From an uncultured Acidimicrobiaceae bacterium (GTDB lineage Bacteria > Actinomycetota > Acidimicrobiia > Acidimicrobiales > Aldehydirespiratoraceae): a stretch of DNA of 64,000 nt. Positions 22,111 through 59,213 of this stretch are shown here, in pieces (the first letter of the stretch is position 1; each line of letters opens with the position of its first letter). The DNA lies in NCBI GenBank assembly GCA_913041415.1, contig CAJWHS010000001.1:3844-67843 (forward strand). Direction: 5' to 3'. The translations under genes and the position numbers were made by a program. Below the pieces are notes generated by a model. That model was not told the DNA's origin. It made no database searches and saw nothing but the letters and a program-made list of their open reading frames with translations.

Positions 22111-22575
22111 TCAGTCGAGCCAGTGGACCGGCACCACAAGCTGCTGGCCAGGCTGAATCTGGGATCCACCAGCAAGATCGCTGAGCTGGTCGACGAGTGC
22201 CCGGGGATCGCTCTCTGGCGCGAGGGCGCTTGCAATACCCCACAGGGTGTCACCGGGCTGCACGACAACGCTGACCGACTCGGTGAGCTGACCCTCGGGG
22301 GTCGGCGTGGCGTCGGCCTGCTGCATGAAGGACGCCACCCCGAGCACGAGGCCGACCACTATGGCCAGCACTGCAAGCCGGCGACGCCGATAGACGTTCG
22401 CTTGATCGGTGACCGGCAGGCGGTAAACGACGGCCAAGGGCGCAACCTCGGCGGGCGTCTCATCGAGTGCCGGCACGATCTGCAACGCCGGACGCTGGGC
22501 CGGGGCAAGCGCGGGATCGTCAACGGTGCGGGGCCGGAAGGTGGTCTGCAGGGCGGGAGCGAAAGCAGCGGTCAT
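22111..22575 (-). CDS. LysM-domain protein divergent from lexA (ChiZ/Rv2719c-like position)
   Basis: C-terminal LysM domain (VVVQPGDTLWGIASAL...IQPGQQLVVP) and one TM segment. The ATG at 22575 lies 7 nt after a -10-like hexamer. Divergent pairing with lexA matches the mycobacterial arrangement. Confidence 0.7.
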   Translation of the reverse strand: MTAAFAPALQTTFRPRTVDDPALAPAQRPALQIVPALDETPAEVAPLAVVYRLPVTDQANVYRRRRLAVLAIVVGLVLGVASFMQQADATPTPEGQLTESVSVVVQPGDTLWGIASALAPESDPRALVDQLSDLAGGSQIQPGQQLVVPVHWLD

Positions 22576-22582
22576 GGCAGTC

Positions 22583-22604
22583 AGTCTCTTCAGGGGGTGT
22601 GACA
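22583..22604 (-). promoter_or_regulatory. RecA-NDp-like promoter element upstream of the LysM gene
   Basis: Gene strand reads TGTCACAC-CCCCTGAA-GAGACT, then 7 nt, then ATG, which fits a leaderless transcript. Confidence 0.5.
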
Positions 22605-22685: not shown

Positions 22686-22754
22686 CGAACGAATGTTTGG
22701 CGAACATGTGTGCGGCGAACAACCGTTCGATCATTTAACCCGAACACCTGTTCG
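22686..22754. promoter_or_regulatory. LexA operator cluster (SOS boxes)
   Basis: Perfect GAAC-N4-GTTC palindromes CGAACAACCGTTCG (22716-22729) and CGAACACCTGTTCG (22741-22754). Degenerate copies are CGAACGAATGTTTG (22686-22699) and CGAACATGTGTGCG (22701-22714). A TTGACA hexamer lies at 22679-22684. Confidence 0.85.
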
Positions 22755-22839: not shown

Positions 22840-23469
22840 ATGCCCGACTCACTCACCACTCGACAGCGAGAAATCCTCGACTGCATCGTCGAGCATCAGA
22901 ACGACCGGGGCTACCCCCCGTCGGTGCGTGAGATCGGCGAGGCGGTCGGCCTGAAGTCCCCGGCAACCGTCAAGGCCCACCTCGACAACCTCAAAGACGC
23001 TGGCTATCTCGTGCGCGACCCTGCCAAGCCCCGCGCCATCCAGGTGCGCTACGAAGGCCTTTCCGGTGCGAGCGCCGAGCGCCGCCCCGTCCGCCATGTC
23101 CCACTCGTCGGCGACGTCGCCGCCGGCACCGATGTGCTCGCCTCCGAGAACATCGAAGAGGTCGTCCCGATGCCGGCCGACCTCACCGGCGACGGCGAGC
23201 TGTTCATGCTGCGAGTACGAGGCGAATCGATGATCGACATCGGGATCTTCGACGGTGACTTCGTGGTCTGCCAGAGCCAGACCACCGCCACGAAGGGTGA
23301 CATCGTCATCGCTGGTATCCCTGGCGAGGAAGCCACGGTGAAGACCTACCAGGAGCGCGACGGCAAGATCGTGCTCGTGCCCCACAACGCATCGCTCAGC
23401 GATATGGTGTTTGATCCGGCCGAGGTGCAGATCTTCGGTAAGGTCGTCACTATGATGCGCAAGCTCTGA
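22840..23469 (+). CDS. lexA: LexA repressor
   Basis: ATG at 22840 follows a GGAGG RBS. It has an N-terminal wHTH (LTTRQREILDCI...SVREIG) and the S24 peptidase motifs RVRGESM and GKVV. Confidence 0.95.
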   Translation: MPDSLTTRQREILDCIVEHQNDRGYPPSVREIGEAVGLKSPATVKAHLDNLKDAGYLVRDPAKPRAIQVRYEGLSGASAERRPVRHVPLVGDVAAGTDVLASENIEEVVPMPADLTGDGELFMLRVRGESMIDIGIFDGDFVVCQSQTTATKGDIVIAGIPGEEATVKTYQERDGKIVLVPHNASLSDMVFDPAEVQIFGKVVTMMRKL

Positions 23470-30513: not shown

Positions 30514-32034
30514 TCAGCCCGAGACGACCGGGATCCGGGTGCGGTGACGGGCCGGAATCGTGATCTCGACGAGCTCGCCCAGCAGATGATTCGTTTTCGC
30601 GTCGAGCACACGAACGGTGGCGTAGGTGCCGGGCTTGATCGGTGACGGACTCGGGAAATGGATGAGGGTGTTGCGGCGGGTCCGGCCGGTGAGCACCGAC
30701 AGATCCTTCTTGCTGGGCCCTTCGACTGTCACTTCCTCCACCACGCCGACCCGGCTGTGGTTGGCCTTCAGACTGGAGCGCTCGATCACCGTGCGCAGGC
30801 GTTCATAGCGTTCGACGGCGACCTTGTGAGGTACCGCGAGCTCGGGCTGTTGGTCGAGCAGTTCAGCTGCTTCGGTGCCCGGGCGGGGAGAGAACACGAA
30901 GGTGAAGGCGCTCGCGAACTCGGCTGCGGCCGCCACCTCAAGGGTGCGCTCGAAGTCCTCGTCGGTCTCGCCGGGGAACCCGACGATGATGTCGGTGGAG
31001 ACGGCCAGGCTGGGAATGGTCGCCCGGGCCTCTGCGAGCTTTTCGAGGAAGCGCTCGCTCGTGTAACCCCGATGCATCAGCTTCAGGACCCGGTCGGATC
31101 CGGCCTGCAGCGGGAAGTGCAGGTGTTCACAGACCTCGGGCGTCTCGGCCATGGCCTCAAAGGTCTCGGTGCGCATGTCCTTGGGGTGCGGTGAGGTGTA
31201 GCGGATCCGGTGCACACCCTCGATCGCTCCGATGTCGCGGAGCAGGTCACCAAACAACGGACGGGCACGACGGTCAGTTGCCCAACGGTCGCCACACCAG
31301 AACGATTCGTCCTCATCGGCGGCGCCGTCGCTGATGTCTAGGGCCCGGCGGGCAAGAGCGAGGTCGCGGCCATAGCTGTTGACGTTTTGACCGAGGAGCG
31401 TGATCTCGCTGACCCCGTCGGCGGCGAGATCGCGTGCTTCATCGACAAGTTCGCCGAATGGACGAGAGATTTCGGGGCCGCGAACGGCGGGCACGATGCA
31501 GAACGCGCAGGTGTTGTCGCAGCCGATCTGGATCGTGAGCCAACCGGCGTGGTCCACCTCTCGCCGGGCAGGCAATGCCGACGGGAAGGCCTCCTGGTTG
31601 TCGCGGGCGGTCGCCTCGAGGATCTCGACGGTCGGGCCGTGCTCTTGGGCGTGGTCGAGGAGTTCGAGCGCGCGGTGCACATTGTGTGTGCCGAAGACGA
31701 CGTCGACATGGCCCGCACGATCCATGATCGTGTCGCGGTCTTTTTGGGCCAGACAGCCACCGACGGCGATCTGAACGTCGGGGTTCTGTTCTTTCAGCAC
31801 CTTGAGGTGGCCGAGGGCGCCGTAGAGCTTGTTGTCGGCGTTTTCTCGAATGCAGCAGGTGTTGAGGACGATCACGTCGGCGTCGGCGACGTCGTCGACG
31901 CGGTTCATCCCGTCGGCCTCGAGCAGGCCGGAGATCCGCTCAGAGTCGTGCTCGTTCATCTGACAGCCGTACGTCTTGACGACGTAGGACTTGCCTTGAC
32001 GGCTCACAGCGGTGTCGTTCACCTGATCGGTCAC
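30514..32034 (-). CDS. miaB: tRNA-i6A37 methylthiotransferase
   Basis: N-terminal KTYGCQMNEHDSE, radical-SAM CDNTCAFCIVP and a TRAM C-terminus. GTG start. Confidence 0.95.
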   Translation of the reverse strand: MTDQVNDTAVSRQGKSYVVKTYGCQMNEHDSERISGLLEADGMNRVDDVADADVIVLNTCCIRENADNKLYGALGHLKVLKEQNPDVQIAVGGCLAQKDRDTIMDRAGHVDVVFGTHNVHRALELLDHAQEHGPTVEILEATARDNQEAFPSALPARREVDHAGWLTIQIGCDNTCAFCIVPAVRGPEISRPFGELVDEARDLAADGVSEITLLGQNVNSYGRDLALARRALDISDGAADEDESFWCGDRWATDRRARPLFGDLLRDIGAIEGVHRIRYTSPHPKDMRTETFEAMAETPEVCEHLHFPLQAGSDRVLKLMHRGYTSERFLEKLAEARATIPSLAVSTDIIVGFPGETDEDFERTLEVAAAAEFASAFTFVFSPRPGTEAAELLDQQPELAVPHKVAVERYERLRTVIERSSLKANHSRVGVVEEVTVEGPSKKDLSVLTGRTRRNTLIHFPSPSPIKPGTYATVRVLDAKTNHLLGELVEITIPARHRTRIPVVSG

Positions 32035-32116
32035 GCCTCAGAGGTTACCGACAGCAGCACGCAGGCCGTGGTGCGGGCGGTAACCGACTCCAGCGCCACC
32101 GGCTGACCTACTGCCG

Positions 32117-32155
32117 GAAAACCTGAAGCGGACCACCCCGAGAGGAGTGGCCCGC
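32117..32155 (-). terminator. Intrinsic terminator candidate downstream of recA
   Basis: The minus strand reads GCGGGCCAC-(10 nt)-GUGGUCCGC, a 9-bp stem with one G-U pair, followed by UUCAGGUUUUCC. A second perfect 9-bp hairpin lies at 32241-32268. Confidence 0.5.
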
Positions 32156-32313
32156 TCTCACGCCCGTGCGCTCGCCGATTGGCGCCGCCGGAATCGGGGA
32201 AGAATCCAGACAGCACCGTGCGTCACGCACAGGCGGGGAAACGAAGGTGGGTCGTTGTTCACCTTCGTGTGATCGGTCGGCCAGATCGTGTCGGCAGTGG
32301 GGTCGCTGCTCGG

Positions 32314-33384
32314 CTAGTCGTCGAGGGCGATCGGCATGTCGTCGGCGTCGGAGAACTCTTCGTCCTCATCGACGTCAGTGACATCGGTCGCCTCTTCCTC
32401 GTCGGGCATGACAGTCTTCCAGACACGGTCGGAGATCTCGACCATGACCTCGGGGTTCTCCGTGAGGTACTTCTTGGCGTTCTCTCGGCCCTGGCCGAGT
32501 TGCTCGCCGTCGTAGGTGTACCAGGCACCCGACTTTTTCACGATCGCCTCTTCGACGGCAAGGTCGAGGACGGAACCCTCACGGGAGATACCGGTGCCGT
32601 ACATGATGTCGAACTCGGCCTGCTTGAACGGCGGGCTGACCTTGTTCTTCACGACCTTCACCCGAGTGCGGTTGCCCACGACCTCGACGCCGTCCTTGAT
32701 CGACTCGATACGGCGGATGTCGAGACGTACCGACGAGTAGAACTTCAGCGCACGGCCGCCCGGAGTGGTTTCGGGCGAGCCGAACATGACACCGATCTTC
32801 TCGCGCAGTTGGTTGATGAAGATGCAGATTGTCTTGGACTTGTTGAGGTTGCCGGTGAGCTTGCGCAACGCCTGCGACATGAGTCGGGCCTGGAGACCGA
32901 CGTGGGTGTCGCCCATCTCGCCTTCGATCTCAGCGCGGGGCGTGAGCGCCGCCACCGAGTCGATCACGACGACGTCGAGCGCACCGGAGCGGATGAGCAT
33001 GTCGGTGATCTCGAGCGCCTGTTCGCCGGTGTCGGGCTGCGAGATCAGCAGCTCATCGATGTCGACACCGATGGCCTTGGCGTAGACCGGATCCATGGCG
33101 TGCTCGGCATCGATGTAGGCACAGGTGCCGCCATTGCGCTGCGCCTCGGCCACGACATGGGTGGCGAGGGTGGACTTGCCCGAGGACTCCGGGCCGTAGA
33201 TCTCGGTGATACGGCCTCGCGGCAAGCCGCCGATACCGAGCGCGAGGTCGAGGGCCAGGGCGCCGGTCGGCACCGACTCGATGGCCATTGTTGTCTTGTC
33301 CCCCATCTTCATGACGGAGCCCTTGCCGAACTGCTTCTCGATCTGGCCGAGTGCCATGTCCAGCGCCTTGTCTCGTTCCACCAT
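32314..33384 (-). CDS. recA: Recombinase RecA
   Basis: ATG at 33384 gives [25 protein letters not shown]. Walker A is [11 protein letters not shown]. The C-terminal tail is acidic. No intein. Confidence 0.97.
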
Positions 33385-33451
33385 CGTTTGTCCTCTGCTG
33401 TGTGCTGCCCGGCTGAACCGGGCGTTGGTTGCCTTGGGGGGTGTGGGGTCG

Positions 33452-33473
33452 AACCTACGGAGGGGGTGTGACA
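33452..33473 (-). promoter_or_regulatory. RecA-NDp-like promoter element upstream of recA
   Basis: Gene strand reads TGTCACAC-CCCCTCCG-TAGGTT. Compare the mycobacterial motif TGTCRGTG-N8-TAnnnT. Confidence 0.55.
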
Positions 33474-33502: not shown

Positions 33503-33531
33503 AACGTAATTGCGAACAGCTGTTCGGTCAA
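33503..33531 (-). promoter_or_regulatory. LexA-repressible recA promoter with an embedded SOS box
   Basis: Gene strand reads TTGACC-N17-TACGTT. The 17-nt spacer contains the perfect box CGAACAGCTGTTCG (33513-33526). Confidence 0.8.
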
Positions 33532-33682: not shown

Positions 33683-34090
33683 ATGGCTGAGACCAGCAGC
33701 TACAACGACGCCGAACTCCGTGAGCGTCTGACCCCCGAGCAGTACACCGTCACCCAGCAAGCGGGTACCGAACGAGCCTTCACCGGCGAGTACTGGGACT
33801 GCCACGACGACGGCACCTACCGCTGCGTCGTCTGCGACATCCCACTCTTCTCCAGCGACACCAAGTACGAGTCCGGCTCAGGCTGGCCGTCGTTCTTCGA
33901 AGCCGTCGGCCCTGACGTCATCGAGGTCCGCAGCGACACCAGCCATGGCATGATCCGCGAGGAAGCCGTATGCGCCAACTGCGGTGCGCACCTCGGTCAC
34001 CGGTTCCCCGACGGCCCGGCTCCGACCGGTGAGCGCTACTGCATGAACAGTGCAGCCATGCGTCTCGACCGAGACACCGCCGAGGAGTGA
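33683..34090 (+). CDS. msrB: Peptide-methionine (R)-S-oxide reductase
   Basis: ATG at 33683 follows an AGGAGG RBS. Zn-binding pairs are CVVC and CANC, and the catalytic region is RYCMNS. Confidence 0.95.
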   Translation: MAETSSYNDAELRERLTPEQYTVTQQAGTERAFTGEYWDCHDDGTYRCVVCDIPLFSSDTKYESGSGWPSFFEAVGPDVIEVRSDTSHGMIREEAVCANCGAHLGHRFPDGPAPTGERYCMNSAAMRLDRDTAEE

Positions 34091-36873: not shown

Positions 36874-39309
36874 TCACCAGCGACTGGGGGCGAGGACCAT
36901 GACCTGACGCTCGGTCTTGGTGGGCACAAGATCTCGCTTCGAGGCCTCGATATCGAATGGCACCGGGTTGGGGTCGAGCTTCTTGGGGTCCTCGTCGTCG
37001 GCCATCTGGACAAGAAGATCACCCAGCCCGCCGATCGAACCGAGCGAACCAAACCACGCGAGCGTGACAGTTTCGGCGGTTCCCAGTTTGGCGACCCGCA
37101 CCCCTTGCCCGCCTCGGCCCTTGGACTCGAATTCCTCATACGGCGTGGCCTTCGCAGCCGAGTCGGACGTGATTGCAAGCACGACGCCGTCGCCGATCAC
37201 CGGACCGGCGCCAACGACCTCGGCCCCTGTCTTGAGCTTTATGCCTGCGACACCTCCAGCACCTCGACCCTGCACGGAAATGGAGTCGAGTGGCATGCGC
37301 AGAACCTGGCCATCGGAGGCGACGGCGATCACATCGACCCCAGCAGGTGCCCGGAACGCAGCGACCACCCGATCGCCGTCCTTGAGTCCGATCACCGGCT
37401 TGCCAGACTTCGTTGCGAGCACCTCGTCGGCGGTGACCTGCTTCGCGACGCCCCGGGCAGTGACGAGGACGAGATTCTCCTCGCCCACCCCGACGAGTGC
37501 GAGTGCATCCTCGCCCTTGTTCAGGCCGAGCTGCTGCGCGGCGGCGTTGCCGCGAGTGCGGCCACCGGCGTCGGCGGCTTCGCCGGCGTGGAAGATGAAC
37601 GCCCGACCCTCGGAGGTTACTGCAGCGATCGCGATGCCGGTCGACGTGACCAGCGCGGACGCTACGAGGTCGTGGCGGCCGGCCACGCCCTTCCTGGCGC
37701 CTTCGGTCGGGACTCGGCCGAGGTTGCCCGAGGACGACAGGGTGACGACACACGGTTCGTTGCTGTCGGTGTCGAACGAGGTGTCGTTCTCCTTGGGGCG
37801 CTCGAAGACCGGTATGTCGTCGGCGTTGATGATCTCGGCCCGGCGATCCTGGCCATGCTTGTTGACGAGTTCGCCGAGCTCTTTCAGCACGAGCTTGCGA
37901 CGGCGATCCTCGCTGTCGAGCAACCATTCGTACTCGGCGATGTCGGTGCGCAGGCCGGCGGCTTCGTCTTCGAGCTCGAGCTTGGCGAGCGCAGTGAGGC
38001 GACGCAGCGCCATGTCGAGGATGTGTGTGGCCTGGATGACCGACAGCTCGAAGCGTTCAATGAGGCGGTCACGGGCTTCGCCGGCGTTTTCCGACGAGCG
38101 AATGATGGCAACCACATCGTCGATCGCATCGAGGGCGATCAGGAGACCTTCGAGGATGTGGAGGCGATCCTGCGCCTTCTCCAGTCGGAACTGGGTTCGG
38201 CGGACGATGACCTCGAGGCGGTGCTCGATGTAGGCGCGGCACAGGTCGGAGAGCCCGAGCGTGGTGGGTACGCCTTCGACGAGCACCACATTGTTGATGC
38301 CGAACGACTCCTCGAGCGGGGTGAGGCGATACAGCTCCTGGAGCACGGCCTGCGGATTGACGGCTGGCTTCACATCGATCTGGATCATGAGGCCGTTCAT
38401 GTCCGACAGGTCGGCAATGCCCTCGATGCCAATGAGCTTGCCGTTGTTGGCGAGTTCCTGAACCTTGCCGATCACCCGCTCCGGACCCACGAGGTAGGGC
38501 AACTCAGTGACGATGATCGACTGGCGATTGCGTGAGGTCTGTTCGACGTGGGCTTTCGCCCGGATGCGGAACGTGCCGCGGCCCGTCTCATAGGCCTCGC
38601 GGAGGCCGTCGTCGACGACGATGCCGCCCGACGGGAAGTCGGGGCCGGGCAGCACGGCCATGAGTTCGTCGATTGTCGGCTTGGGCCGACGTTTGGTCAT
38701 GACGATCTCGATCGCATCGGCGACCTCGCGAAGGTTGTGTGGGGCCATGTTCGTGGCCATGCCCACGGCAATGCCGCTGGTGCCGTTGACGAGAATGTTG
38801 GGCAGCGCCGCCGGCAACACAATTGGCTCATCGCCCTCGCCGTCGTAGGTGGTGCGGAAGTCGACCGTGTCCTCGTCAAGTTCGCGGACCATGTCCATCG
38901 CCGGCTCGGCCAGACGGCACTCGGTGTAACGCGCAGCGGCGGGCGGATCGTCGAGCGAACCGAAATTGCCCTGCGGATCGATGAGCGGGACCATCCGCGA
39001 AAAGTCCTGGCCCATGCGGGTCAAGGTGTCGTAGATGGCCGCGTCGCCGTGCGGGTGGTAGCGACCCATCGTGTCGCCCACGATGCGGGCCGACTTGCGA
39101 TACGGCGTGCCGGGGCGGATGCCCATCTGCAGCATCGACCAGAGGATGCGGCGCTGCACCGGCTTGAGGCCGTCGCGAGCATCGGGAATGGCACGAGATG
39201 TGATGACCGAGAGGGAATAGGCGAGGAAACTCTCGCTCATCTCCTCGGCAACGGAGACCTCAACGACTTCGCGAGCGAACCCGCCGTCGAATTCGAGCTG
39301 TCGAGACAT
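36874..39309 (-). CDS. Type IIA topoisomerase subunit A, ParC-like (no GyrA box seen)
   Basis: 811 aa with RAIPDARDGLKPVQRRILW, GRYHPHGD, catalytic Tyr region AAARYTE and a beta-pinwheel CTD lacking a QRRGGKG-type GyrA box. No B-subunit gene lies adjacent. Confidence 0.85.
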   Translation of the reverse strand: MSRQLEFDGGFAREVVEVSVAEEMSESFLAYSLSVITSRAIPDARDGLKPVQRRILWSMLQMGIRPGTPYRKSARIVGDTMGRYHPHGDAAIYDTLTRMGQDFSRMVPLIDPQGNFGSLDDPPAAARYTECRLAEPAMDMVRELDEDTVDFRTTYDGEGDEPIVLPAALPNILVNGTSGIAVGMATNMAPHNLREVADAIEIVMTKRRPKPTIDELMAVLPGPDFPSGGIVVDDGLREAYETGRGTFRIRAKAHVEQTSRNRQSIIVTELPYLVGPERVIGKVQELANNGKLIGIEGIADLSDMNGLMIQIDVKPAVNPQAVLQELYRLTPLEESFGINNVVLVEGVPTTLGLSDLCRAYIEHRLEVIVRRTQFRLEKAQDRLHILEGLLIALDAIDDVVAIIRSSENAGEARDRLIERFELSVIQATHILDMALRRLTALAKLELEDEAAGLRTDIAEYEWLLDSEDRRRKLVLKELGELVNKHGQDRRAEIINADDIPVFERPKENDTSFDTDSNEPCVVTLSSSGNLGRVPTEGARKGVAGRHDLVASALVTSTGIAIAAVTSEGRAFIFHAGEAADAGGRTRGNAAAQQLGLNKGEDALALVGVGEENLVLVTARGVAKQVTADEVLATKSGKPVIGLKDGDRVVAAFRAPAGVDVIAVASDGQVLRMPLDSISVQGRGAGGVAGIKLKTGAEVVGAGPVIGDGVVLAITSDSAAKATPYEEFESKGRGGQGVRVAKLGTAETVTLAWFGSLGSIGGLGDLLVQMADDEDPKKLDPNPVPFDIEASKRDLVPTKTERQVMVLAPSRW

Positions 39310-39316
39310 GGCGCCG

Positions 39317-39338
39317 ACCGTAGTCAGGGGCTGTGACC
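39317..39338 (-). promoter_or_regulatory. RecA-NDp-like promoter element upstream of the ParC-like gene
   Basis: Gene strand reads GGTCACAG-CCCCTGAC-TACGGT, then 7 nt, then ATG (39309). Confidence 0.5.
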
Positions 39339-57617: not shown

Positions 57618-58529
57618 TCAGGAGTCGGCGCCGACGAGACGCAGGTAGACGCCCTCGAGGGTGACGCTCTCGATCGACAGCCCGTCGAGTTCGATGCCCT
57701 GCTTCAGCGCCCACCCGGTGATGTGGGCGAGGTCGGCGGTCGGTTTCGTGGTGGAGATCTCGAGACGCCGATCACGCCCCGAGGCATCACCGTGGAGCGG
57801 GTCGAGAAGGCCGGCGAGCGAAGCGTCGATGCTGGGGAGTGCGAACCGGATGATGGTTGCCTCGCCGGCCTGGTCGCGTAATGACTCGGGCGTGCCCGCT
57901 GCGACGATTGTGCCCCCTGCCATCACGATGAGGTGATCGGCGAGTTCCTCGGCCTCCTCGAGGTAGTGGGTGGTGAGCACGATGGTGGTGCCGTTGCCAG
58001 CGAGATCGCGCACCAGTTCCCAGCTCCGCCGGCGGGCAGCGGGGTCGAAGCCGGTGGTCGGCTCGTCGAGGAAGAGGACATCGGGTGTGCCGATGACGCC
58101 AAGCGCGAGATCGACTCGTCGTTGCTGTCCTCCAGAGAGACGGGAGATGCGTTCGTCGAGCTTGTCGGCGAGTTCGACCATCTCGATGACCTCGTCGATG
58201 CTCCGGCGACGGGTGTATGCGGTGCTGTAGAGATCGAGGGTCTCGCGAACGGTGAGCTCCTTGTCGACACCCGCCTCCTGCAACACGATGCCGATGCGGT
58301 TGCGGAACGCTTGACCTCCGTCGGTGGGGTCGACCCCGAGGACGGAAACCCGTCCGCTGTCGCGACGGCGATGTCCCTCGAGGATTTCGACCGTGGTGGA
58401 CTTTCCGGCACCGTTGGGACCGAGGATGGCGAACACCTCCCCGGGCTCGACGGAAAAGGACACGCCATCGACGGCCCGAAGGTCGCCGTAGGACTTGGAG
58501 AGATCCTCAACCTCGATCGCCGTGGTCAC
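57618..58529 (-). CDS. ABC transporter ATP-binding protein (DrrA-like)
   Basis: GTG at 58529. Walker A GPNGAGKSTT, signature LSGGQQRR and Walker B LFLDEPTTGFD. Confidence 0.9.
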   Translation of the reverse strand: MTTAIEVEDLSKSYGDLRAVDGVSFSVEPGEVFAILGPNGAGKSTTVEILEGHRRRDSGRVSVLGVDPTDGGQAFRNRIGIVLQEAGVDKELTVRETLDLYSTAYTRRRSIDEVIEMVELADKLDERISRLSGGQQRRVDLALGVIGTPDVLFLDEPTTGFDPAARRRSWELVRDLAGNGTTIVLTTHYLEEAEELADHLIVMAGGTIVAAGTPESLRDQAGEATIIRFALPSIDASLAGLLDPLHGDASGRDRRLEISTTKPTADLAHITGWALKQGIELDGLSIESVTLEGVYLRLVGADS

Positions 58530-58622
58530 GGTCCCGACGCTACCCGAGCAGCCGAAGACCGGTGCTGCGTGGAGCGCATCGATGCGTCCACATGCGCGGC
58601 ATGTCCGACTACGGTCCCGGCG

Positions 58623-59213
58623 ATGCGTCACCCCGTCGCCTCGTTCCTGGCCGAATGCAGCCACCTCCTCGGAGCTGTCGATGAGGCGATGGCCCAGCGC
58701 TTTGCCTCGCTGCTTGCCGTCGCGGCGGATACCGAAGGTGATCCCTCGGAACTCGCGTCGCCGTTCCCGCTGGGACCACATCCCGACATGGGCGCCATCA
58801 CCACAGCACGGACCGCTGCTGCGCTCGCCGGTCTGGTCGCCGCCGATCCTCATATCGGGTGGCGCCATCCGCCCGAGGAGCACGTGCCGCCGGGATGGGC
58901 ACATTCGGCGGCTGCCGCCGAGCTGTTGGGGCCCGATGGCTCGATCACGGGGCCGGACCCGGAGCGATTTGGGCTCTTCTTCCTCAATCCCGGGGTCACC
59001 TATCCCGACCACTGGCACGACGCCGACGAGTTCTATTACGTGCTCGCCGGTTCCGCGGTGTGGACCGTCGGCGATGAGACCACCCGTTCCCCGGCGGGCT
59101 CGTACATCCGAACCCCGTCGCAGGCGGTTCACCGCATCATCACCGACGACGAGCCCGTGCCCACGGTGTGGGGCTGGTCGGGCGACACCAGCTTCGATTC
59201 CTACGGCTACTGA
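58623..59213 (+). CDS. Cupin-domain protein (DMSP-lyase-like family)
   Basis: Cupin motif YPDHWHDADEFYYVLAG...H. An alternative GTG start lies at 58569. The N-terminal 230 codons of the track ORF are antisense to the ABC ATPase gene. Confidence 0.5.
   Translation: MRHPVASFLAECSHLLGAVDEAMAQRFASLLAVAADTEGDPSELASPFPLGPHPDMGAITTARTAAALAGLVAADPHIGWRHPPEEHVPPGWAHSAAAAELLGPDGSITGPDPERFGLFFLNPGVTYPDHWHDADEFYYVLAGSAVWTVGDETTRSPAGSYIRTPSQAVHRIITDDEPVPTVWGWSGDTSFDSYGY

Follow-up and report, generated by a model that had tools for sequence, protein, structure and literature searches.

Probable activator-dependent promoters of the PafBC/RecA-NDp class upstream of recA, a lexA-adjacent LysM gene and parC in Acidimicrobiia

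Three 22-nt elements that precede recA, a LysM-domain gene and a parC-like gene in one stretch of bacterial DNA are best read as activator-dependent promoters of the PafBC class (RecA-NDp; 'P1' at recA), a reading to which we assign a probability of about 0.8. The DNA analysed, hereafter the window, is the whole 64-kb stretch and has a G+C content of 66%. The match of the three 22-mers goes beyond chance. Judging from sequence, it marks a real, functional promoter class, probably the PafBC/RecA-NDp system already known, in a lineage-specific form, rather than an element of a new kind. The RecA encoded in the window is at most 87% identical to that of any species-representative genome, with Acidimicrobiales MAGs and Aquihabitans as the best matches, and one window protein was also found on a Tara Oceans contig. 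The RecA relatives and the Tara Oceans match together place the window in a marine member of the Acidimicrobiia. An open reading frame at 57933-59213 encodes a DMSP-lyase-like cupin domain, consistent with a marine origin.

The earlier note had described three 22-mers on the gene strand just upstream of the recA, LysM and ParC-like genes, and both their letters and their positions held exactly (Table 1). The recA site consists of a -26 element TGTCAC, a pyrimidine tract ACCCCCTCCG and a -10 hexamer TAGGTT. The LysM site is made up of TGTCACACCCCCT, then GAA, then the hexamer GAGACT, and the parC site of GGTCAC, AGCCCCTGAC and the hexamer TACGGT. All three carry the GTC triplet (positions 2-4 of the 22-mer) in the -26 element, and in all three GTC stands 12 nt from the hexamer, a SigA-type -10 of the form tA(N3)T. 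In the LysM hexamer a G replaces the usual T at the first position (-12), a lower-case position in the published consensus. The geometry had been likened to that of RecA-NDp/PafBC promoters; it fits exactly the published in vivo PafBC consensus tGTCgg(N10)tA(N3)T, which has its 5' part at -23 to -28, uses the SigA -10 as its 3' part and lacks a -35, and orientation and position agree as well (PMC8635444). The flank after GTC in the window sites is A-C. We call the sites variant because this A-C replaces the published 'gg', which is absent; in M. smegmatis PafBC promoters the 'gg' is itself conserved at no more than 50%.

Table 1. Positions of the genes, predicted promoters and SOS boxes in the window.
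Feature	Position	Strand	Details
LysM-domain membrane protein gene (154 aa), divergent from lexA	22111..22575	-	Pfam LysM
LysM-gene promoter, PafBC/RecA-NDp type (predicted)	22583..22604	-	TGTCACAC-CCCCTGAA-GAGACT (22604-22583); 7 nt to ATG at 22575; from sequence and recurrence in metagenome contigs
Four SOS boxes (two perfect, two one-mismatch) in the LysM gene-lexA interval	22686..22754 (69 bp)	.	
lexA	22840..23469	+	Pfam LexA_DNA_bind and Peptidase_S24; likely start MPDSL, open frame back to 22693
recA	32314..33384	-	Pfam RecA 8e-143
recA proximal promoter, PafBC/RecA-NDp type (predicted)	33452..33473	-	TGTCACAC-CCCCTCCG-TAGGTT (33473-33452); ATG at 33384, 67 nt past the hexamer; read from sequence
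recA distal, LexA-controlled promoter (predicted)	33503..33531	-	TTGACC (33531-33526), N17, TACGTT (33508-33503)
Perfect SOS (LexA) box	33513..33526	.	CGAACAGCTGTTCG; in the spacer of the distal recA promoter
Topoisomerase IV subunit A (ParC-like) gene, 811 aa	36874..39309	-	Pfam DNA_topoisoIV 7e-145 and DNA_gyraseA_C
parC-like gene promoter, PafBC/RecA-NDp type (predicted)	39317..39338	-	GGTCACAG-CCCCTGAC-TACGGT (39338-39317); 7 nt to ATG at 39309; from sequence, matrix score and orthologues

In the mechanism that we propose, each 22-mer would act as a housekeeping -10 of the form (T/G)AnnnT joined to a '-26 element' with GTC exactly 12 nt upstream and no -35. By analogy with mycobacteria, a ssDNA-bound WYL-domain heterodimer, PafBC or an orthologue, would take its place between the -26 element and sigma region 4, allowing the RNA polymerase holoenzyme to start 6-8 nt past the hexamer. 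For the LysM gene and parC the start point would be the A of the ATG, and leaderless mRNAs are predicted for both. Transcription of recA from the proximal promoter is predicted to begin near 33445 and to yield a leader of about 61 nt, while a second recA promoter, about 30 nt further upstream, would be blocked by LexA through the SOS box in its spacer. Read from one LexA-blocked and one activator-driven promoter, recA would respond to DNA damage through derepression as well as activation.

The upstream recA promoter had been described as a 'textbook' LexA promoter. Its two hexamers, their N17 spacing and the SOS box in the spacer are all present as described, 29 nt from the 22-mer, but 'textbook' overstates the case, for an E. 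coli-type sigma-70 scan misses this promoter. The same scan called nothing in either the recA or the lexA intergenic region, a silence to be expected because these promoters are actinobacterial. Carrying both the 22-mer and the LexA-box promoter, the window recA bears out the proposed parallel with mycobacterial recA, which has a PafBC-dependent P1 and a LexA-dependent P2 (PMC5656591). On the other side of the intergenic region msrB (SelR, 33683-34090, plus strand) is divergent from recA, and the 298-bp recA/msrB region would therefore carry promoters for both genes. No recX follows recA; a 280-bp gap (32035-32313) separates it from a MiaB-like gene (30514-32034), and likewise in two related loci (L203 and L208).

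Conservation of the recA element was examined in the closest recA loci with upstream sequence, 16 of 19 of which carry TGTCACACCC(C/T)(C/T)T...TA(G/C/T)GGT at 45-145 nt before the start. Two further related loci have the same element with a one-base variant, GTT or GTG for GTC. The related loci also have a LexA box, placed 40-130 nt further upstream than the 22-mer. Counted over related recA sites, the GTC triplet is present in 18 of 20, the exceptions being L013 (GTT) and L017 (GTG); the other gene-anchored sites, beyond recA, all have it (10/10). In L013 the element reads TGTTACACCCC... about 67 nt upstream of recA and in L017 TGTGACACCC... about 129 nt upstream. Both have the C of GTC replaced and ACAC retained, and the resulting TGT(C/G)ACA is near-palindromic. 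The closest recA loci contain no lexA-LysM pair or parC within 10 kb, and the LysM and parC promoters of relatives were reached by searches other than recA synteny.

Aligned in an identical register, 35 recA loci of the class Actinomycetes read TGTC(G/A)G(T/A)(G/C)...TA(G/A/C)CGT. The count matrices of the two groups have T1, G2, T3, C4, T17, A18 and T22 in common. TGTC, TAnnnT and the 12-nt spacing hardly vary over the 35 Actinomycetes and 20 Acidimicrobiia-like recA loci, which also have a LexA box further upstream; the spacing of the window sites recurs unchanged in each of the 65 gene-anchored sites that were compared. The groups differ at positions 5-7, which are A-C-A in the window lineage versus G-G-T/A in class Actinomycetes. 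Position 6 is C in 17/20 recA and 9/10 other sites here, whereas 33 of the 35 Actinomycetes recA sites have G, and position 7 is A in 20/20 sites here versus T or A in Actinomycetes. The lineage-specific core that the earlier note had claimed is thus real.

In mycobacteria, residues R46 and R50 of PafB recognise GTC and PafC touches sigma region 4, a mode termed 'sigma adaptation' (PMC8635444). No WYL or PafBC gene is present in the 64-kb window. With PafB of M. smegmatis as the query (sequence from PDB 7p5x), tblastn found nothing in the window or in the 2.3 Mb of loci fetched, nor did a 130-sequence HMM, and a homologous-protein search with PafB returned mycobacteria only. A representative-protein search listed 150 diverse PafB-like proteins without taxonomy, none assignable to Acidimicrobiia. 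The named members in two PafB-like cluster look-ups were only Egibacter and an 'Actinomycetales' MAG, and a profile of 50 divergent PafB-like representatives gave class-Actinomycetes names only. Because no pafBC gene was located for the lineage, the link of the 22-mers to PafBC itself is one that we infer, by analogy with the mycobacterial system.

These searches, which tied no PafBC to the class, lend some weight to a reading in which architecture and damage regulon are the same and the -26 element is read by something other than a PafBC orthologue, be it a different WYL regulator or an activator of unrelated origin that has taken over the promoter position. Positions 5-7 of the core are changed, the core runs on into the C-tract, and TGTCACA is near-palindromic, unlike the mycobacterial motif. 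PafB reads GTC in mycobacteria, and two recA promoters here have GTT or GTG in its place with ACAC kept; the changed flank and these two GTC-less promoters are why a replacement factor keeps a share of the probability. That share is small. The sister class Actinomycetes has TGTC, a TAnnnT at 12-nt spacing and the same target genes, which makes a homologous regulator the simplest and most parsimonious reading. The pupylation locus, normally linked with pafBC, occurs in Acidimicrobiales (PMC3511204), and among the proteins listed for an Acidimicrobiia MAG is one class-A HTH-WYL-WCX protein similar in size to PafB/C. We consider a non-PafBC reader improbable.

The placement of the element relative to genes was examined in metagenomes with the pattern GTCACACCCCCT-N3-(G/T)A-N3-T. 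It occurs in at least 120 contigs, 100 of high and 20 of low GC among the matches listed. Since they were picked by the exact 12-mer, the contigs inform on position, orientation and gene content and not on conservation of the 12 bases; most are of unplaced taxonomy, the recA-bearing ones alone being placeable. A start codon (ORF of at least 60 aa) lies 5-9 nt past the hexamer in 48/100 high-GC contigs versus 8.9% of random positions in the same contigs (binomial p = 2.5e-24, among the matches listed), and in 1/20 of the low-GC contigs, which serve as an internal control. This placement points to leaderless transcripts. The modal hexamer-to-start gaps are 6 and 7 nt among the matches listed, and the window LysM gene and parC both have 7 nt. 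The base before GTC, which the pattern left unconstrained, is T in 79/100 high-GC versus 6/20 low-GC matches listed.

Among the matches listed, the genes behind the element are led by DUF222-HNH genes of the 13E12 type (15), recA (12, with products 76-91% identical to the window RecA), a small Cys-rich protein (9) and a LysM gene next to lexA (8), with radA, SbcD-like, RmuC, LigA and ComF-like genes twice each. Single cases are a PD-(D/E)XK nuclease, a DnaQ-like exonuclease fused to GIY-YIG, and DNA methylases. The set overlaps the mycobacterial RecA-NDp/PafBC regulon. Damage-response genes accordingly stand behind the element in the window (recA, the lexA-adjacent LysM gene, parC) and elsewhere (repair genes, parE, ftsK).

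The same contigs speak to the -35 region. Positions -48 to -29 hold at most 0.27 bits each in 99 aligned high-GC sites, and since nothing is conserved there we conclude that there is no -35 element. TGTCAC sits 10 nt from the hexamer, versus 16-18 nt for a -35, and was rejected as a -35 because that spacing is too close. This bears on a reading of the 22-mer as an ECF-type sigma promoter, or as a repressor operator over a constitutive promoter, in place of an activator-dependent SigA promoter. The searches identified no regulator, and the conserved sequence from -28 to -16 could in principle be an operator. Nevertheless, a promoter with neither a -35 nor an extended -10 TGn needs help to fire, and the identical layout has been proven activator-dependent in mycobacteria (PMC8635444), which, with a hexamer of the housekeeping TAnnnT type and nothing conserved at -35, leaves this reading very unlikely; its ECF form was rejected.

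Conservation at parC was followed in orthologues, found by protein search before their contigs were fetched; Acidimicrobiales MAGs contain full-length homologues of the window protein under the name topoisomerase 4 subunit A. Three of them (76-88% protein identity) carry CGTCACAC-CTGCTGAC-TACGGT, CGTCGCAT-GAGCTGAC-TACGGT and TGTCACTC-GGCGCCGC-TACGGT, each with 7 nt to the ATG. A fourth has TGTCACTG-N8-TAAGGT with a leader of 77 nt, and a fifth TGTCGGTA-N8-TATGCT followed by an SOS-like box; no element was found at the most distant orthologue. GTC, the hexamer and the gap to the ATG are kept in the orthologues and the bases between drift, which is the conservation pattern published for PafBC promoters. 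The CCCCT spacer emphasised by the earlier note is indeed common in the sites, but it is dispensable: the parC orthologues lose the tract, so CCCCT is a preference and not a requirement.

The element also precedes parE in two relatives (CGTCACAC-N8-TACGTT, then 6 nt, then GTG) and ftsK in L002 (CGTCACACCCCGGTGGTACCTT, then 8 nt, then ATG). Despite the presence of parC, no parE lies within the 64-kb window; in relatives a GyrB-family parE follows 1-4 kb downstream of parC (L204 16191-18242; L207 15153-17228; L209 13753-15816), and then a PD-(D/E)XK nuclease gene. Upstream of parC in L209 (9926-9960) the element is TGTCGGTACCCGGAACTATGCT, with an Actinomycetes-like GG flank, and an SOS-like box CGAACGTTCGTTCG lies 2 nt past the hexamer, an arrangement that suggests dual control of parC in this locus.

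The LysM gene stands in a module with lexA. The SOS palindrome CGAAC-N4-GTTCG has 19 matches at no more than one mismatch in the window, three of them perfect, versus 4.8 expected. At least ten metagenome contigs carry the LysM module with the core, a hexamer GAG(A/C)(C/A)T (GAGACT or GAGCAT), 6-7 nt to the ATG and a divergent lexA, with 2-4 SOS boxes 25-160 nt upstream. In more distant relatives (L015, 16470-16830; L017, 17300-17650) LysM lies beside lexA with SOS boxes only and no 22-mer, so the LysM element is not found throughout the class. As far as the sequences indicate, the LysM gene seems to be under LexA in some members of the class and under an activator promoter in others.

Within the window itself, GTCACASCCCCT at no more than one mismatch has three matches in 64 kb, which are the three 22-mers; 0.61 were expected, and 2/100 shuffles reached three. 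All three matches are intergenic, in sense orientation and less than 70 nt from a start codon. About 3% of positions combine these features, which by a rough estimate gives about 2e-5 for all three. A weight matrix built solely from the recA sites of other genomes ranks the window's own sites first to third: recA at 34.1 bits, parC at 19.0 and LysM at 10.7. The best of 20 simulated windows reached 18.4 bits, so that recA and parC lie above and LysM below. By matrix score the LysM site is at noise level and not significant; because its score falls within the simulated range, its support comes from position and from recurrence elsewhere. The literal mycobacterial pattern TGTCR-N11-TANNNT matches only recA in the window and is not enriched there, nor are the loose patterns GTC-N12-TANNNT and GTCAC-N11-A-N3-T. 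A further match, inside miaB (31515-31536; also in L006, L009 and L203), was rejected as a promoter, being conserved coding sequence. The caution voiced earlier, that a shared 14-mer could by itself be chance, was well placed, given the 0.61 expected matches and the LysM score; the case against chance from the window alone is modest, and the decisive evidence comes from other genomes. The idea that the recA element alone is functional and the LysM and parC matches are accidents of GC-rich intergenic DNA can draw on the 10.7 bits of the LysM site, on the roughly 0.6 matches expected per window for a shared 12-14-mer at one mismatch and on the lack of enrichment of the loose patterns, but it is largely refuted and barely credible, since the LysM site and its odd hexamer recur in at least ten independent lexA-LysM modules, parC keeps GTC, hexamer and 7-nt gap though the intervening bases have diverged, parE has the element too, and both window sites put the ATG 7 nt past the hexamer, the modal arrangement of the class.

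Several genes behind the element lie outside classical repair. The small Cys-rich protein (66-94 aa) has the motif ISCDxCxxxxxxACxDCVVTF, no Pfam match and often a leaderless start; it is among the commonest genes behind the element (L087, L090, L110, L134, L151, L153, L170, L182 and L190) and is a candidate damage-response protein. DNA methylases (N6_N4_Mtase and Eco57I-type), a ThsB-like TIR protein, a serine recombinase and an integrase-like gene also follow it (L144, L175, L167, L157 and L138), so defence and mobile-element genes probably lie behind this promoter type as well. In IMG/VR the 12-mer plus hexamer was found in 95 viral contigs (L210-L303; e.g. L215, L224, L274; L214, L228, L273; L210, L247, L249), many of them interrelated. 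A start codon lies 5-9 nt past the hexamer in 24/51 high-GC versus 3/46 low-GC viral matches. Among the genes that follow are those for a recurrent protein of about 155 aa that matches no PHROG (in about 17 related contigs), for ImmA-type metalloproteases (phrog_87), for a single-strand annealing protein and for exonucleases, one of them RecE-like. Phages or prophages of these hosts may thus have placed early, recombination or induction genes under the host damage promoter.

Taken jointly, the observations can be given a bolder form, which we offer tentatively and regard as possible but doubtful: that a re-specified, extended -26 element (TGTCACACCCCCT) is read by a diverged PafB or a replacement factor, that it governs a largely leaderless damage regulon including topoisomerase IV (parC and parE) and ftsK, and that phages and prophages of these hosts have taken it over so that their protease, recombination and early genes are expressed in step with DNA damage in the host.

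The published cross-species alignment of PafBC promoters covers class Actinomycetes only (PMC8635444). A review extends RecA-NDp to other Actinobacteria. No mention of PafBC together with Acidimicrobiia was found in the literature searched, and on these two grounds, the Actinomycetes-only alignment and the literature, the Acidimicrobiia variant appears to be undescribed. PafBC-type promoters in Acidimicrobiia would not surprise a specialist. The present reading would carry a LexA-independent, activator-driven damage response beyond class Actinomycetes, in which it has been studied, into a deep-branching class that abounds in oceans and soils and is for the most part uncultured. In that class, topoisomerase IV and a LysM division protein may, on this reading, take part in the damage response. 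C versus G at position 6, beside the invariant GTC, is a natural specificity variant with which DNA reading by the PafB helix could be tested. The 12-mer plus hexamer also provides a compact, highly specific marker for damage regulons and leaderless starts in metagenomes.

Known systems resemble the 22-mers to different degrees. The DriD promoters of Caulobacter crescentus are similar in the WYL-type, LexA-independent activation of damage genes, including a cell-division inhibitor, and DriD senses ssDNA independently of SOS; it differs in being a homodimer with another DNA site and promoter position, and its site has no sequence relation to the 22-mer. Mycobacterial RecA-NDp/PafBC promoters share the 22-nt bipartite layout, the GTC 12 nt before TAnnnT, the lack of a -35, the location upstream of recA and repair genes, and the LexA promoter further upstream at recA. 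Unlike them, the sites here have A-C-A at positions 5-7, usually with the CCCCT tract next, and about half have a start codon at the predicted start (leaderless). [quoted passage not shown] The window repeats this arrangement, with a LysM gene divergent from lexA, four SOS boxes between and a RecA-NDp-type promoter of its own for the LysM gene, whereas its SOS boxes lie 80-150 nt upstream of the LysM promoter. The window gene is a positional counterpart of Rv2719c, a LysM cell-wall hydrolase and cell-division suppressor, the proteins being too diverged to show orthology. TopoN, a type II topoisomerase subunit, is listed in the PafBC regulon (PMC8223512), and the accessory topoisomerase TopoNM of M. 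smegmatis, under PafBC, likewise places such a subunit behind a damage-activator promoter; the window gene differs in encoding a canonical-looking ParC (with ParE in relatives) and not TopoN, and is likened to it by promoter sequence alone. Each of the three window genes, recA, the LysM gene and parC, has a mycobacterial precedent, in recA P1/P2, Rv2719c and TopoN respectively.
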